Origin: an uncultured Ectothiorhodospiraceae bacterium
GTDB lineage: Bacteria > Pseudomonadota > Gammaproteobacteria > GCA-002705445 > GCA-002716945
Length of the DNA: 64,000 bases
Direction: 5' to 3'
Assembly: GCA_964342155.1 (NCBI GenBank)
Contig: CAYFEQ010000003.1
Location: forward strand, 27,734 to 91,733
A program made the translations under genes and the position numbers. The notes beneath the pieces are model-generated. The model was not told the origin of the DNA and made no database searches. It saw only the letters and a list, made by a program, of their open reading frames with translations. This document shows, piece by piece, positions 9,534 to 57,149 of the stretch (positions within the stretch are counted from its first letter, which is position 1; every line of letters begins with the position of its first letter).

Positions 9534-11006
9534 TTACTTCTTAGGTTTCATCAATGGAAATAGAAGAACATCTCTTATAGATGATGAGTTTGTTAGAATC
9601 ATGATTAATCTATCTATTCCAATGCCAGCGCCTGCTGCAGGTGGCATTCCATATTCTAGCGCTGTTATAAAATCCTTATCATAGGACATTTTTTCATCAT
9701 TGGTAGACTCAGCTTGTCTTGTAAATCTAAGTGATTGTTCATATGGATTATTGAGTTCAGAAAAACCATTTGCAACTTCTCTTCCTGCGATAAATAATTC
9801 AAATCTCTCAGCAATTCCTTGATCATTATCAAAACTTCTCGCAAGAGGAGATACATCAGTTGGATAATGTGTAACAAAAGTTGGATTAATTAATTCCTTT
9901 TCTACAGTTTTTTCAAATATATCTAAATGTGTATGGAATAATGATTTATCGTCAGTAATTGATATATCAGATTTTTTTGCATAATCATTTAAAAATTTTA
10001 GATCACTAATATTTTCTGAATTTATTTCTTTATTATATTGAAACAATGCATCATAAAATTTAATTCTTTTAAATGGCACATTAGTATCAATTGTGACATT
10101 TTGGTATTCAAAAGAATCTTTAATTTCAATCCTCTTTTTTATATCAGTAAACATCTTTTCAATTAAATCCATTAAATACACATAATCTTGATAGGCACTA
10201 TAAAATTCTATCATTGTAAATTCCGGATTATGTTTTACTGACAGACCTTCATTTCTAAAGCTACGATTTATTTCAAAAACTTTTTCAAATCCACCTATAA
10301 TACATCTTTTTAAAAACAACTCTGGAGCAACTCTGAGATAAAGATCCATATCAAGAGTATTATGGTAAGTAGCAAAAGGTTTAGCTGTTGCTCCTCCAGG
10401 AATAATATGCATCATGGGTGTTTCTATTTCTAAAAAATCATTTGATATAAAAAAGTCTCGTATAGATGAGATTATTTTAGTTCTTTTCTTAAAAAGATTC
10501 TTAGTATCATGATTAGTCATTAAGTCTAAATATCTTTGCCTATATTTAATTTCTATATCTGAAATTCCATGGAATTTTTCTGGCAAAGGCCTCAATGATT
10601 TAGCAAGTAATGTAATTTCTAAAACATTAACTGTTAACTCATTTGTTTTGGTTTTGAATAGTGTCCCTTTGACACCAGCTATATCACCAAGATCTAGGTC
10701 AGGTATAATCTCTTTACTTTCTTCAGGAAGAGATTTCTTTTGAAGATAAATTTGAATTTTTCCAGATTCATCATGTAAATCAGCAAATGTCGAATTTCCC
10801 ATTTCTCTAATCATTAATAATCTTCCAGCTATGGAAACAGAGACATTTTTATTCTTCAAATCATCTTTTTCTATATCTTTGTATTTTTCAACAAGCAAAA
10901 TACTGTCATCAGTTTTTTTGAATGTATTTGGGTATGGGTTAAATTTTTCCTTTATTCTGTCTAGTTTTTTCTTACGTTCAAGAATTAGTTTGTTATCATC
11001 TTCCAT
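9534..11006 (-). CDS. lysS: Lysine--tRNA ligase (class II)
   Basis: YRQRYLDL, LRVAPEL.LKR, RNEG...HNPEFT, YGMPP.AG.GIGIDRL. Confidence 0.97.
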   Translation of the reverse strand: MEDDNKLILERKKKLDRIKEKFNPYPNTFKKTDDSILLVEKYKDIEKDDLKNKNVSVSIAGRLLMIREMGNSTFADLHDESGKIQIYLQKKSLPEESKEIIPDLDLGDIAGVKGTLFKTKTNELTVNVLEITLLAKSLRPLPEKFHGISDIEIKYRQRYLDLMTNHDTKNLFKKRTKIISSIRDFFISNDFLEIETPMMHIIPGGATAKPFATYHNTLDMDLYLRVAPELFLKRCIIGGFEKVFEINRSFRNEGLSVKHNPEFTMIEFYSAYQDYVYLMDLIEKMFTDIKKRIEIKDSFEYQNVTIDTNVPFKRIKFYDALFQYNKEINSENISDLKFLNDYAKKSDISITDDKSLFHTHLDIFEKTVEKELINPTFVTHYPTDVSPLARSFDNDQGIAERFELFIAGREVANGFSELNNPYEQSLRFTRQAESTNDEKMSYDKDFITALEYGMPPAAGAGIGIDRLIMILTNSSSIRDVLLFPLMKPKK

Positions 11007-11007
11007 T

Positions 11008-12124
11008 TTATAATCCAGCTTTTAAACTCTCTTCAATAAATTGATCTAATTCTCCATCTAGGACAGCTTGAGTATTTCCAGTTTCATATTTTGTTCTCAA
11101 GTCTTTGACTCTTGAATCATCTAGTATATATGATCTAATCTGACTGCCCCATCCAATATCAGATTTTTCTGATTCAATTTGATTCTTAACGGCATTTTGT
11201 TTTTCTATTTCATATAAATATAGTTTAGCACGTAGTTGCTTTAATGCGCTTTCTTTGTTTTTATGTTGAGAGCGACTATTTTGACATTGAACTACAATGT
11301 TTGTCGGTAGGTGTGTGATTCTGACAGCTGATTCAGTTGTATTAACATGCTGTCCTCCCGCTCCACTAGCTCTATAAACATCAATGCGTATGTCTGCTGG
11401 GTTTATTTCAATATTTAAATCATCTTCAATCTGTGGATATACAAAAATTGATGCAAAGGATGTGTGCCTACGATTTCCAGAATCAAATGGTGATTTTCTT
11501 ACTAATCTATGTATTCCTGTTTCTGTTCTCAGCCAACCATATACATAATCACCATGGATTTTAATTGTTACACTTTTATAGCCTGCGATCTCTCCTTCTG
11601 ATGCTTCAATTATCTCTGTAGTAAAATTATGTGTTTCACACCATTTTAAATACATTCTCATCAACATTGAGACCCAGTCTTGGGCTTCTGTTCCACCAGA
11701 ACCAGATTGAATATCTAGGTAAGCGTCATATGAGTCATGCTCATTTTTAAACATTTGTTTAAATTCAATTGCATACAAAAGTTTATCTGCATTGGCTATT
11801 AAATCTTTCATCTCTCTAACTAGATCTATATTTTTTTCAATCAAATTATCCTTGAGCAATGAATTCAATGTATATTGTGCCATTTCTACGTCATTATTAA
11901 TTTTTTGCATTTCTGAATAGGAGGATTTCAGGCTTTTATGTTCTTTTTGAATTGAGGCAAGTTTTTTTCTATTTTTCCATACTTTTTCATCTTCTAATTG
12001 CGCCTCCAAAGTAGTTATTTTAGATACAAGGTTATCGTAGTCAAACTAACCTCCTGAGCTCTGTAAATTTTTTTTCAAGCTCTTTTGCCTTATTTAAAAT
12101 ATCCAATATATCATCTCTATTCAT
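11008..12124 (-). CDS. prfB: Peptide chain release factor 2, programmed +1 frameshift (27 codons + 344 codons)
   Basis: SPF and GGQ motifs; upstream ORF ATG at 12124 ([27 protein letters not shown]) joins the long frame by +1 at 12043. Confidence 0.95.
12040..12055 (-). promoter_or_regulatory. prfB frameshift cassette: SD AGGAGG, 3-nt spacer TTA, GTT TGA C
   Basis: Minus strand reads AGG AGG TTA GTT TGA CTAC GAT; the +1 frame GAC TAC GAT... is in frame with the ORF-track start at 12009. Confidence 0.9.
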
Positions 12125-12782
12125 TACTATTTTTATCCTCAAATGAATTTAATCTTTCAAGCCATTTTATTTGATATTTTTTTAGTTCATCCAACGAAAC
12201 TGTATTTTCCTCATGATCACCATTCCTCATGCATAGGAAAATCATTATGCTATCAATTTTTGTTTTATATTGCCAATCATGAGCTAATGTATATGCAGCC
12301 AATTGCAGAAAATACTCATCAATTTCTTCTTGTGTTTTTTTTCTATATGACGACTTATAGTCCACTAAAATAATATTTTTATTCATTACTCCAATAAGGT
12401 CTATAGTGCCAGCATATCTATTTTTATAATGGACAGAGGCTTCGGTACCCCAAATTTCATCAATATTATTAATACAATGTTCAATTATAATTTTAGCTAG
12501 GCTTTCAGCTATAAGAAAATTTTTATCGGTTTGTTGAAGAATTGTTTCGCTAGAAATATAATCATCTAAATATTTATGCATCAAATTTCCTATTCTCATT
12601 GCATCTAAACTAGAATGGCTTATTTTTTTATGTTCAGTTAAAGAATTTGGTTTGGTTGAATTTAGAATAGAAGTCACGCTTGGGACAAATTCATTAGCCT
12701 CTATTTCATAATATCTAACACCATCAATTTTATTTATATTATAATTTTTATAATTATATTTCGATTTATAGGTTTCAATCAT
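12117..12782 (-). CDS. PD-(D/E)XK (RecB/Cas4/MGME1-like) exonuclease
   Basis: PSVTSIL, GNLMH, E, YAGTIDL...VDYKS, LQLAAY; no four-Cys Cas4 cluster motif; stop overlaps the prfB ATG. Confidence 0.85.
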   Translation of the reverse strand: MIETYKSKYNYKNYNINKIDGVRYYEIEANEFVPSVTSILNSTKPNSLTEHKKISHSSLDAMRIGNLMHKYLDDYISSETILQQTDKNFLIAESLAKIIIEHCINNIDEIWGTEASVHYKNRYAGTIDLIGVMNKNIILVDYKSSYRKKTQEEIDEYFLQLAAYTLAHDWQYKTKIDSIMIFLCMRNGDHEENTVSLDELKKYQIKWLERLNSFEDKNSNE

Positions 12783-12789
12783 TCTAAAA

Positions 12790-13140
12790 CTATCTTTTTA
12801 AAATAGATAAAATTTTTTCTAGGTCTGCTGATAATTGGTCGAGAATTTGTCGATCAAGATAAGAGCTTTTTGCTGCCATAGTTTCATCTAATTTATTTTT
12901 TGCCCCTTCTATTGTATATCCCTGTTTGTTTAAAAGTTCGTTAATTTGAGAGACTAACATTAAATCCTTTTGTTGATAATATCTTCTATTCCCTCTTCTT
13001 TTTATTGGTTCAAGTTGTTTGAACTCCTGTTCCCAATATCTTAGTACATGAGATTTTATACCATAGATTTTTGATACCTCTCCAATAGTAAAGTATCTCT
13101 TGTTTGGTATATTTATTGATGTATCGTTATTTGTCTCCAT
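12790..13140 (-). CDS. MerR-family transcriptional regulator (ihfA-associated type)
   Basis: [10 protein letters not shown]...[20 protein letters not shown]; conserved position after ihfA. Confidence 0.92.
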
Positions 13141-19491: not shown

Positions 19492-19504
19492 AATATAATC
19501 TTCT

Positions 19505-19578
19505 TAGGCACGATTGGGTTCGAACCAACGACCTCCACCATGTCAAGGTGGCGCTCTAACCAGCTGAGCTACGCGCCT
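19505..19578 (-). tRNA. tRNA-Val(GAC), CCA not encoded
   Basis: AGGCGCG acceptor stem, CCACC-TTGACAT-GGTGG anticodon arm, GGTTCGAAC T-arm; discriminator A followed by AGAA. Confidence 0.96.
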
Positions 19579-19655
19579 AAATTATGTAAAAATTAACACG
19601 GCGATAAATCTTTCTCAAGCTGTTTTATTTTTATAAAATTATTTAACCTCTCTCA

Positions 19656-55061: not shown

Positions 55062-55573
55062 GAGGTCAATTTATCGTTAAGTTCATTTGCATGTTTAATA
55101 TAAAATCTTAGTTTGCAAAAAATATTCCACATTTCTTCAAAATCCTTTTTCAAATAACAGTTTTTTATATCATTGATAGATAAAGATATTTTCTTAATTA
55201 TATTATTTTGATAAGAGCTTACTTGGTTAGAATCATTCTCTTTAATATTGTCAATGAATTCATTGAACTCAATTTGCTCTAATAAAAAATTATCATCCTT
55301 AAGTGTTTCAGATTCATCTCTTTTGAAATTATTAATTTTAAATATATAATCAATTCTTTTAATTAAGTCACCTAAAGTTACATATCCATCATTGATATAA
55401 GATGATATTTGAAGAGCTAATCTCTTTTCATGGCTAGATGAATTGGAATATTTATCAGGATGAAATTGTTGTTGTAAATTATTATATTTATTATCCAACG
55501 CAGGCTTATTTACTTCTATACTAACTTCGATACCAAATAAATCAAAATAATTCTTCTTTAAAATGTCCATCAA
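55058..55573 (-). CDS. hscB: Fe-S assembly co-chaperone HscB
   Basis: NYFDLF, FHPDK J-domain, FLLEQIE; context. Confidence 0.92.
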
Positions 55574-55893
55574 ACATTAAAACTTTCACCGCATCCACAT
55601 TCATCTTTGACATTTGGGTTTTTGAATCTAAATCCCTCATTAATACCTTCTTTTGAAAAGTCTAATTCTGTTCCTTTAAGATAAACATAGCTTTTTGGGT
55701 TGATGATTATTTTTATGCCGTTATCATCAAAAACTAAATCATCCTGCTCAATTTTATCAGCAAATTCAATTACATACGCGAGCCCTGAACATCCAGTAGT
55801 TTTTACACCTAATCTAAGACCTATTCCTTTACCACGGCTTGAAAGATGTCTTTGCGCATGTTCTGCTGCTGATTTAGTAACTGATATTGACAT
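55570..55893 (-). CDS. iscA: A-type Fe-S carrier IscA (likely start MSISV at 55893)
   Basis: [24 protein letters not shown]. Confidence 0.96.
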
Positions 55894-55895
55894 TT

Positions 55896-57149
55896 TTAAT
55901 GACTCGACCATTTAACTTTCTTTAAATCAATGCCATCTTTATGCATTTCCCATAATGGCGATAAATCTCTTAACCTGCTTACGTTGTCTTTAATAATTTT
56001 TAGGACATGCTCAATATCTATTTCTGTTGTATATTTCCCTATTGTCATTCTTATCGAACTATGAGCTAACTCATCATCTCTTCCTAGAGCTCTTAAAACA
56101 TAACTTGGTTCAAGGCTTGCAGATGTGCAAGCTGATCCAGAAGAAACAGCAACGTCCTTCATTGCCATTATCAAACTTTCTCCTTCTATGAAATTAAAAC
56201 TCACATTTAGATTACCCGGTATCCTTTGATCTAAATCACCATTAAGGTAAATCTCTTCCATATCTTTTAGTCCATTCCAAAGTTTATCTCTTAGTTTTAG
56301 AATTCTTTTATTGTCTTCTAACATTTCTTCTTCAGCAATTCTAAAAGCCTCTCCCATTCCTACAATCTGATGCGTTGGAAGAGTTCCAGATCTAAAACCT
56401 CTCTCATGACCACCGCCATGCATTTGAGCTTCTAATCTTACTCTTGGCTTTCTACGTACATAAAGCGCACCTATTCCCTTTGGCCCATAAACCTTATGTG
56501 CAGAAAGAGATAATAAATCAATATTATATTTATCAACATCTACTTTTACTTTGCCTGGACTTTGAGCAGCATCCACATGCAATATAATATTTTTTTCTCT
56601 AGTGATTTTTCCTATACTTTCCAAATCTTGAATAACTCCAATCTCATTATTTACATGCATTATAGAAATTAATATAGTTGAAGGAGTAATTGCTTCTACT
56701 AGTTTTTTCTGGTTTAAAAGTCCATTAGGTTCTGGATCAAGATAAGTTACTTCAAATCCTTCATTTTCAAGCGACCTCATTGTATCAAGAACAGCTTTAT
56801 GTTCAGTAGACAGTGTTATAAGGTGATTCCCTCTATCTTTATAAAAGTGTGCTGCACCTTTTATTGCTAAATTATCTGATTCAGTAGCTCCACTAGTCCA
56901 AATTATTTCCCTATGATCTGCATTGATTAAAGAAGCAACATTTTTTCTAGCTTCTTCGACAAGTTTTTCGCTTTCCCACCCAAATGTATGTGAACGAGAC
57001 GCTGGGTTGCCAAACGCTCCTTCGATAGTCAGACACTCAGACATCATCTTCGCAACTCTAGGGTCTACAGGAGTAGTTGCTGAATAATCAAGATAGATTG
57101 GTATATTTAAAATATTCTTTTTATCATGTAAGTTTGTTGCCATATCCAT
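55896..57149 (-). CDS. iscS: Cysteine desulfurase IscS (exact start uncertain)
   Basis: [39 protein letters not shown]. Confidence 0.97.

Follow-up and report, generated by a model that had tools for sequence, protein, structure and literature searches.

The programmed +1 frameshift of prfB, the gene encoding release factor 2 (RF2), is the textbook recoding event of bacteria, and its slippery sequence, CUU_U, is treated as almost invariant. A prfB locus of an uncultured Ectothiorhodospiraceae bacterium raises the question of whether such a site can operate with another codon in the ribosomal P site. The locus lies in a 64,000-nucleotide stretch of contig CAYFEQ010000003.1 (positions 27,734 to 91,733 of the forward strand; here, the window), in which a short open reading frame, ORF0, ends in GTT TGA C, that is, with a Val codon directly before an in-frame UGA. 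Judged from the sequence, the locus is a natural variant of a known recoding mechanism and not a new kind of system: very probably, prfB is expressed here through an autoregulatory programmed +1 frameshift in which GUU serves as the slip codon.

Anatomy of the site

The sequence AGGAGG TTA GTT TGA C was read directly from the window at 12055..12040 of the minus strand. The earlier note on this DNA had described the Shine-Dalgarno (SD)-like AGGAGG, its 3-nt spacing, and the Val codon in the P site, all of which are borne out. Its coordinates are exact to the base; the strand, which it had left unstated, is the minus strand. The features of the locus are as follows.

12117..12782, minus strand: PD-(D/E)XK-like gene upstream of prfB, whose TAG stop overlaps the prfB ATG (ATGAATAG)
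12044..12124, minus strand: prfB ORF0, 27 sense codons from ATG (12124..12122) to GTT (12046..12044)
12050..12055, minus strand: internal SD-like stimulator AGGAGG, read as two Arg codons
12047..12049, minus strand: spacer (E-site) codon UUA, whose 3 nt separate the shift codon from the SD-like element
12044..12046, minus strand: P-site shift codon GUU (Val) by sequence and translation, where the canonical codon is CUU (Leu)
12041..12043, minus strand: UGA, the in-frame RF2-specific stop that closes ORF0, invariant in the clade
12040, minus strand: C directly 3' of the UGA, a weak-termination context, invariant in the clade
11008..12042, minus strand: prfB +1-frame ORF of 344 amino acids, from GAC (12042..12040) to the stop (11010..11008)

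The C at 12040 doubles as the third base of GAC, the first +1 codon, and the +1 product translates as DYDNLVSK...SLKAGL. Frame 0 continues past the UGA as CTA CGA TAA; read-through would be useless, because it meets another stop two codons on. The overlap of ORF0 with the stop of the PD-(D/E)XK-like gene supports the ORF0 start, and it suggests translational coupling of the two genes.

With up to two mismatches allowed, the window still holds a single copy of the 16-mer (chance expectation, 0.01 matches). We regard the Arg codons of the SD-like elements as rare here, AGG making up 96 and CGG 9 of the 764 Arg codons in the window. The GUU_UGA hexamer alone is unremarkable in this genome, because it also forms an ordinary terminator: the gene at 55570..55911 (minus strand) ends in GTT TGA T, without an SD-like element and without a C after the stop.

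Identity of the fused product and the need for RF2

The product obtained by fusing ORF0 to the +1 ORF scores 474.7 bits against the NCBIfam prfB model TIGR00020 (cut-off, 370), covering profile positions 2-353. It scores higher against prfB than against prfA, for which it reaches 287.8 and stays under the cut-off of 423. The best PDB match of the protein is E. coli RF2 (1gqe; E = 1.5e-139), and the +1 translation carries the SPF (...RKSPFDSGN...) and GGQ (...SGAGGQHVN...) motifs, which align to the same motifs of E. coli RF2. ORF0 is itself homologous to residues 1-25 of the E. coli protein and contributes prfB profile positions 2-27. Its length and its C-terminal sequence, ...ELR(R/G)LV, are kept in all relatives. 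The junction peptide that the earlier note had predicted, ...ELRRLVDYDNL, aligns without a gap to VLRGYLDYDAK of E. coli RF2, Val27 facing Leu25. Because the alignment runs ungapped across the junction, the site is orthologous to the classical CUU UGA site.

The window has a GC content of about 29-30%, and its 58 ORFs end in TAA (28), TAG (16), or TGA (14, or 24%). Since UGA closes 14 of 58 genes, RF2 is required and UGA is not reassigned. TGA followed by C is rare at the normal terminators of the window (2 of 14). A second prfB copy may exist elsewhere in the genome, our view being that of the 64-kb window.

Conservation of the GUU site and its boundary with canonical sites

Relatives of the locus were collected by a genome scan, a protein search, and a metagenome scan. 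The genome scan returned four close relatives (L001-L004), all of them marine gammaproteobacterial metagenome-assembled genomes (MAGs) and single-cell genomes (SAGs), with RF2 proteins that are 87% (L004) or 65% (L001-L003) identical to that of the window; all four read GTT TGA C. The same scan found 59 further loci, in Bryobacteraceae and other Acidobacteriota, a Zetaproteobacterium, and Fictibacillus. The site is recognisable in 55 of these outgroup loci, and every one of the 55 reads TAT or TCT followed by CTT TGA C.

The closest 120 RF2 relatives in the protein search are 65-100% identical and derive from marine metagenomes, MAGs, or Tara data throughout. They were grouped into 14 clusters at 85% identity, with 66-84% identity between clusters. 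DNA was read for eight clusters, for two relatives anchored by LysS, and for three matches of the metagenome scan; all have (A/C)GG (A/G)GG TTA GTT TGA C. In three more clusters, comprising 43 proteins, the +1 run-on reads GGWFD, for which GG. GGT TGG TTT GAC is the sole possible coding, so that frame 0 must read TTG GTT TGA C. Run-on peptides such as GGIFD cannot separate CTT, TTT, and ATT. One relative, L202, was left out, its contig ending before the site. A lineage survey of prfB shift codons, which the earlier note had suggested as a check on its reading, thus gives GTT in 16 of 16 distinct cassettes, taken from marine MAGs, SAGs, and metagenome contigs that are independent of one another and all of the form GG.GG TT(A/G) GTT TGA C.

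This constancy stands out from the divergence around it. In a detailed comparison of 13 cassettes, identity between the +1 ORFs ranges over 63-99% (median, 67%). Where a four-fold codon is conserved, its third base agrees in 48% of cases, which is near saturation. The P-site codon of the clade is always GTT, which supplies 49% of the Val codons in the window; GTA, GTC, and GTG were never seen, nor was TTT found as P-site codon in the clade members examined. These comparisons confirm that a whole group of AT-rich Gammaproteobacteria, marine and uncultured, has kept the GUU variant. The clade is deep and apparently abundant in the sea.

The nearest RF2 outside the clade for which DNA was read (P0241/L079; 59% identity) has different neighbouring genes and the site AGG GGG TAT CTT TGA C. 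It was found by a search of representatives at 50% identity, which was otherwise too coarse. No intermediates (UUR-CUU or UAU-GUU) occur among the clade and outgroup loci that were read. The metagenome scan with GGRGGTTAGTTTGAC gave mostly chance matches, 3 of 80 loci being linked to RF2, and revealed no second lineage with the site. Those three loci lie on low-GC contigs and have clade-like ORF0 sequences and RF2 identity. The 15-mer GGRGGTTAGTTTGAC alone is not diagnostic.

Two further genes of the neighbourhood are as follows.

12790..13140, minus strand: merR-family gene, which together with the PD-(D/E)XK-like gene separates ihfA from prfB throughout the clade
9534..11006, minus strand: lysS, directly downstream of prfB, an arrangement shared with E. 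coli

By Pfam assignment of the syntenic genes, the order pheT, ihfA, merR-like, PD-(D/E)XK-like, prfB, and lysS is constant in the clade; L079, the nearest canonical outgroup, has a TsaD-family (PF00814) gene upstream of prfB instead. A promoter and terminator scan around prfB gave results no better than those for shuffled sequence.

Spacer codon, SD strength, and tRNA-Val

Besides the P-site codon, the spacer codon distinguishes the clade. It is TTA or TTG in 16 of 16 clade cassettes, and TAT or TCT in every outgroup with CUU. Spacer and P-site codons co-vary perfectly, UUA or UUG being joined with GUU in L001-L004, L064-L078, L115, L117, L149, and L201. A spacer codon made of A and U only, as is UUA, would readily let its tRNA go. 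Weak E-site pairing promotes the prfB shift, according to the passages of PMC13245932 that draw on Baranov 2004, Marquez 2004, and Sanders and Curran 2007. In the TTA form of the cassette, the +1 frame has UAG immediately 5' of UUU.

The earlier note had suggested that a stronger SD interaction may offset the mismatch. This is not a feature of the clade: the predicted SD:anti-SD energies (-11.5 kcal/mol in the window and -9.8 to -13.4 kcal/mol in the clade) overlap those of canonical sites (-10.3 kcal/mol in E. coli and -10.5 to -10.7 kcal/mol at gammaproteobacterial, zetaproteobacterial, and Firmicute sites), and it is the spacer codon that co-varies instead. No conserved 3' RNA stimulator was found (-1.6 kcal/mol, no covariation).

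A tRNA able to read GUU is encoded in the window, as the earlier note had stated:

19504..19579, minus strand: tRNA-Val(GAC), candidate GUU decoder, identified by ARAGORN and Rfam

Its anticodon stem-loop, CCACC-UUGACAU-GGUGG, matches that of E. coli tRNA-Val(GAC) at every base. A specialised tRNA-Val was considered and rejected, the anticodon arm being that of E. coli; by the same token, no adaptation of the tRNA accounts for GUU. The gene lies between uvrB and thrS both in the window and in the relative L076 (1431..1506, plus strand), whose LysS is 68% identical to that of the window. The two are syntenic for uvrB, tRNA-Val, thrS, infC, rpmI, rplT, pheS, pheT, ihfA, prfB, lysS, purB, fumC, acnA, and mnmA. 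Lost decoding of CUU does not explain the switch either, since no other CUN Leu codon is used as often in the window as CUU (415 times), and a C-to-G change is not what AT pressure yields.

Proposed mechanism and alternatives

We propose that ribosomes would initiate at the ATG at 12124, translate 27 codons, and then pause while GUU, bound by peptidyl-tRNA-Val, occupies the P site and UGA-C the A site. When RF2 is plentiful, it would terminate translation at the UGA. When RF2 is scarce, AGGAGG(U), 3 nt upstream, would pair with the 16S anti-SD, the E-site tRNA-Leu would depart from its weak UUA codon, and tRNA-Val would slip +1 onto UUU. There, the A35:U and G34 (or U34):U pairs would be retained, and a C36:U mismatch at the first position would be tolerated. 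Asp-tRNA would then read GAC, giving full-length RF2 (...RRLV-DYDNL...). The site has the anatomy of a prfB shift site, is homologous to the canonical one, and is strictly conserved in a deep clade; slippage with re-pairing at two of three positions, the choice of tRNA-Val isoacceptor, the efficiency of the shift, and autoregulation are inferred.

The restriction of the Val codon to GTT argues for a need for U at both positions 2 and 3, which make the +1 codon UUU, and favours re-pairing. In E. coli reporters comparing 32 P-site codons, CUU_U was "by far the most efficient" according to the passage of PMC5009743 that cites Curran 1993, from which GUU would be expected to shift less well. Use of GUU_U in an essential gene would mean that a first-position wobble pair is not required in nature, and the clade offers a natural test case for the trade-off between P-site re-pairing and E-site codon identity.

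RF2, together with RF3, aborts mismatched P-site codon-anticodon complexes in post-peptidyl-transfer quality control. A more speculative reading, to which we assign a low probability, is that either the mismatch is itself functional, or tRNA-Val modification or the ribosome has changed in such a way that GUU_U shifts here as well as CUU_U does elsewhere. In the first version, the mismatch may provide a second RF2-dependent checkpoint on the synthesis of RF2; in the second, UUA or UUG in the E site may be a co-evolved partner.

The frameshift might also be real and proceed without re-pairing, tRNA-Val staying on GUU or detaching while Asp-tRNA binds GAC out of frame. We consider this unlikely. 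It would lead to the same protein product, and the two models are indistinguishable from sequence alone; only two of the three positions of the +1 codon can pair, the other being a true C:U mismatch, and shifting of this kind is documented in yeast and has been proposed for the GCG sites of Ty3 and yeast antizyme (PMC12661321; PMC5009743). Against it, GTT is the P-site codon of 16 of 16 cassettes, though 51% of Val codons are GTA, GTC, or GTG, which points to selection for UUU as the target of re-pairing, and non-re-pairing tRNAs at the bacterial RF2 site give up to 1000-fold less product according to the portion of PMC2377451 that summarises Curran 1993. Slippage with partial re-pairing thus accounts better for the choice of codon.

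A frameshift would be dispensable if RF2 started at an internal +1 codon such as TTG 12009, ORF0 being a leader peptide or a relic. The TTG is present, and gene callers choose it or other internal starts. We hold this explanation to be very improbable. The earlier note had kept TTG 12009 as an alternative RF2 start, and the codon is not conserved: at the homologous position, relatives have ATA, ATT, GTA, CTA, GTC, or CTG, and four of them lack any ATG, GTG, or TTG in the first 45 codons of the +1 frame. No SD-like sequence precedes TTG 12009, and the resulting product would cover profile positions 28-353 only, losing positions 1-27. Furthermore, ORF0 is conserved as a protein with homology to the RF2 N-terminus, which argues against a leader or relic.

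The two remaining explanations have a negligible probability. A sequencing or assembly error at 12046, or a pseudogene, might be suspected in that one base separates GTT from canonical CTT and a prfB protein is missing at the locus from the listing of at least one NCBI assembly. However, the assembly error that the earlier note had named as a possible refutation does not hold up, as the same G is found again in independent assemblies (SAGs, short-read and long-read MAGs, and Tara/JGI/ENA contigs) from at least 15 divergent lineages, while no lineage has a broken +1 ORF, the cassette does not vary, and UGA regularly serves as a stop. Repair at the RNA level, with RNA polymerase slipping on the T run to make a GUUGAC mRNA, would yield the same Val-Asp junction through loss of one U from GUUUGA, but the run has just three T residues, productive transcriptional slippage requires far longer homopolymer runs, and the conserved SD-like element with its exact 3-nt spacing, the UGA, and the C after it are features of a ribosomal mechanism.

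Comparison with known shift sites

The closest known system is the canonical prfB cassette of E. coli (AGG GGG UAU CUU UGA C), which lies in the same gene and at the equivalent codon (27/28 here, 25/26 in E. coli). Both have a short ORF0, an SD-like element 3 nt upstream, NUU_U, UGA, and C (PMC13245932, PMC12421855), and they also share U as the first spacer base and lysS downstream. Unlike the canonical site, that of the clade has GUU (Val), departing from the CUU_U slippery sequence while keeping its U_U_U part. The spacer is UUA or UUG and not UAU or UCU, and the residue at the RF2 junction is Val and not Leu. A different tRNA would therefore slip, making a C36:U mismatch as its first-position contact in the +1 frame, in place of the G36:U wobble of canonical tRNA-Leu(GAG).

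Natural exceptions to CUU_U are few. The sequence is highly conserved, and only a small share of species have UUU_U in its place (Atkins et al. 2016, PMC5009743). Among 12,753 RefSeq representative genomes, Prince et al. 2025 (PMC12421855) recorded 8,164 with a premature stop in prfB and CTTTGA in nearly every motif. The only exception they name is TTTTTGA, in 21 low-GC genomes of Aquificota and Gammaproteobacteria, and GTTTGA was not found in the accessible portion of their supplementary data. Naeem et al. (PMC10798248) covered complete genomes only. Surveys of RefSeq or complete genomes would miss the present clade, because it is known from uncultured MAGs and SAGs. No report of GUU_UGA in prfB was found in the open-access literature, and a full-text search for GUU UGA or GTTTGA returned primer-sequence noise only.

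The UUU_UGA variant of prfB resembles the present site in having a natural non-CUU codon in the P site, in occurring in low-GC lineages, and in keeping the SD-like element, the spacing, and the UGA. It differs in that tRNA-Phe re-pairs perfectly and the change is an AT-biased C-to-T, whereas GUU_U entails a mismatch.

Sites of +1 frameshifting with GUU-UGA are known from eukaryotic antizyme genes, in which they arose several times independently (Ivanov and Atkins 2007, PMC1874602), the examples being Cryptococcus neoformans, Aureobasidium pullulans, Cryptomonas, and shore crabs (PMC1874602). The likeness extends to the identical GUU_UGA, the role as a negative-feedback sensor, and a tRNA-Val with the same first-position mismatch on UUU. 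However, antizyme is another gene, translated by eukaryotic ribosomes, and polyamines rather than a release factor are sensed. Its stimulators are 5' elements or 3' pseudoknots, in contrast to the SD:anti-SD helix of prfB in the clade. Bacteria and eukaryotic antizyme would thus have converged on the same GUU_UGA shifty stop.

Consequences for annotation

RF2 is systematically mis-annotated in the clade. In a collection of 5.8 billion proteins, the 120 closest RF2 relatives all lack ORF0, and query coverage does not exceed 93%. The internal starts set by gene callers are arbitrary and give products of 299-340 amino acids; other calls run the +1 frame upstream through the cassette, three of them reading TAG as Q. 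At the locus L077 (3718-4823 of JAOKCY010000001.1, assembly GCA_028245655.1), no protein is listed between the PD-(D/E)XK gene and lysS. The DNA nevertheless holds an intact ORF0 and a 344-amino-acid +1 RF2 ORF, and prfB is absent from the protein set of that genome, probably since its non-canonical site escaped recognition as a programmed frameshift. The three calls containing ...GGQFD... (L067, 238-1290; L068, 106-1260; L072, 1444-2496) are untranslatable from their own DNA under table 11; TAG stands in the DNA where the protein has Q, which implies that the gene caller used an alternative code.
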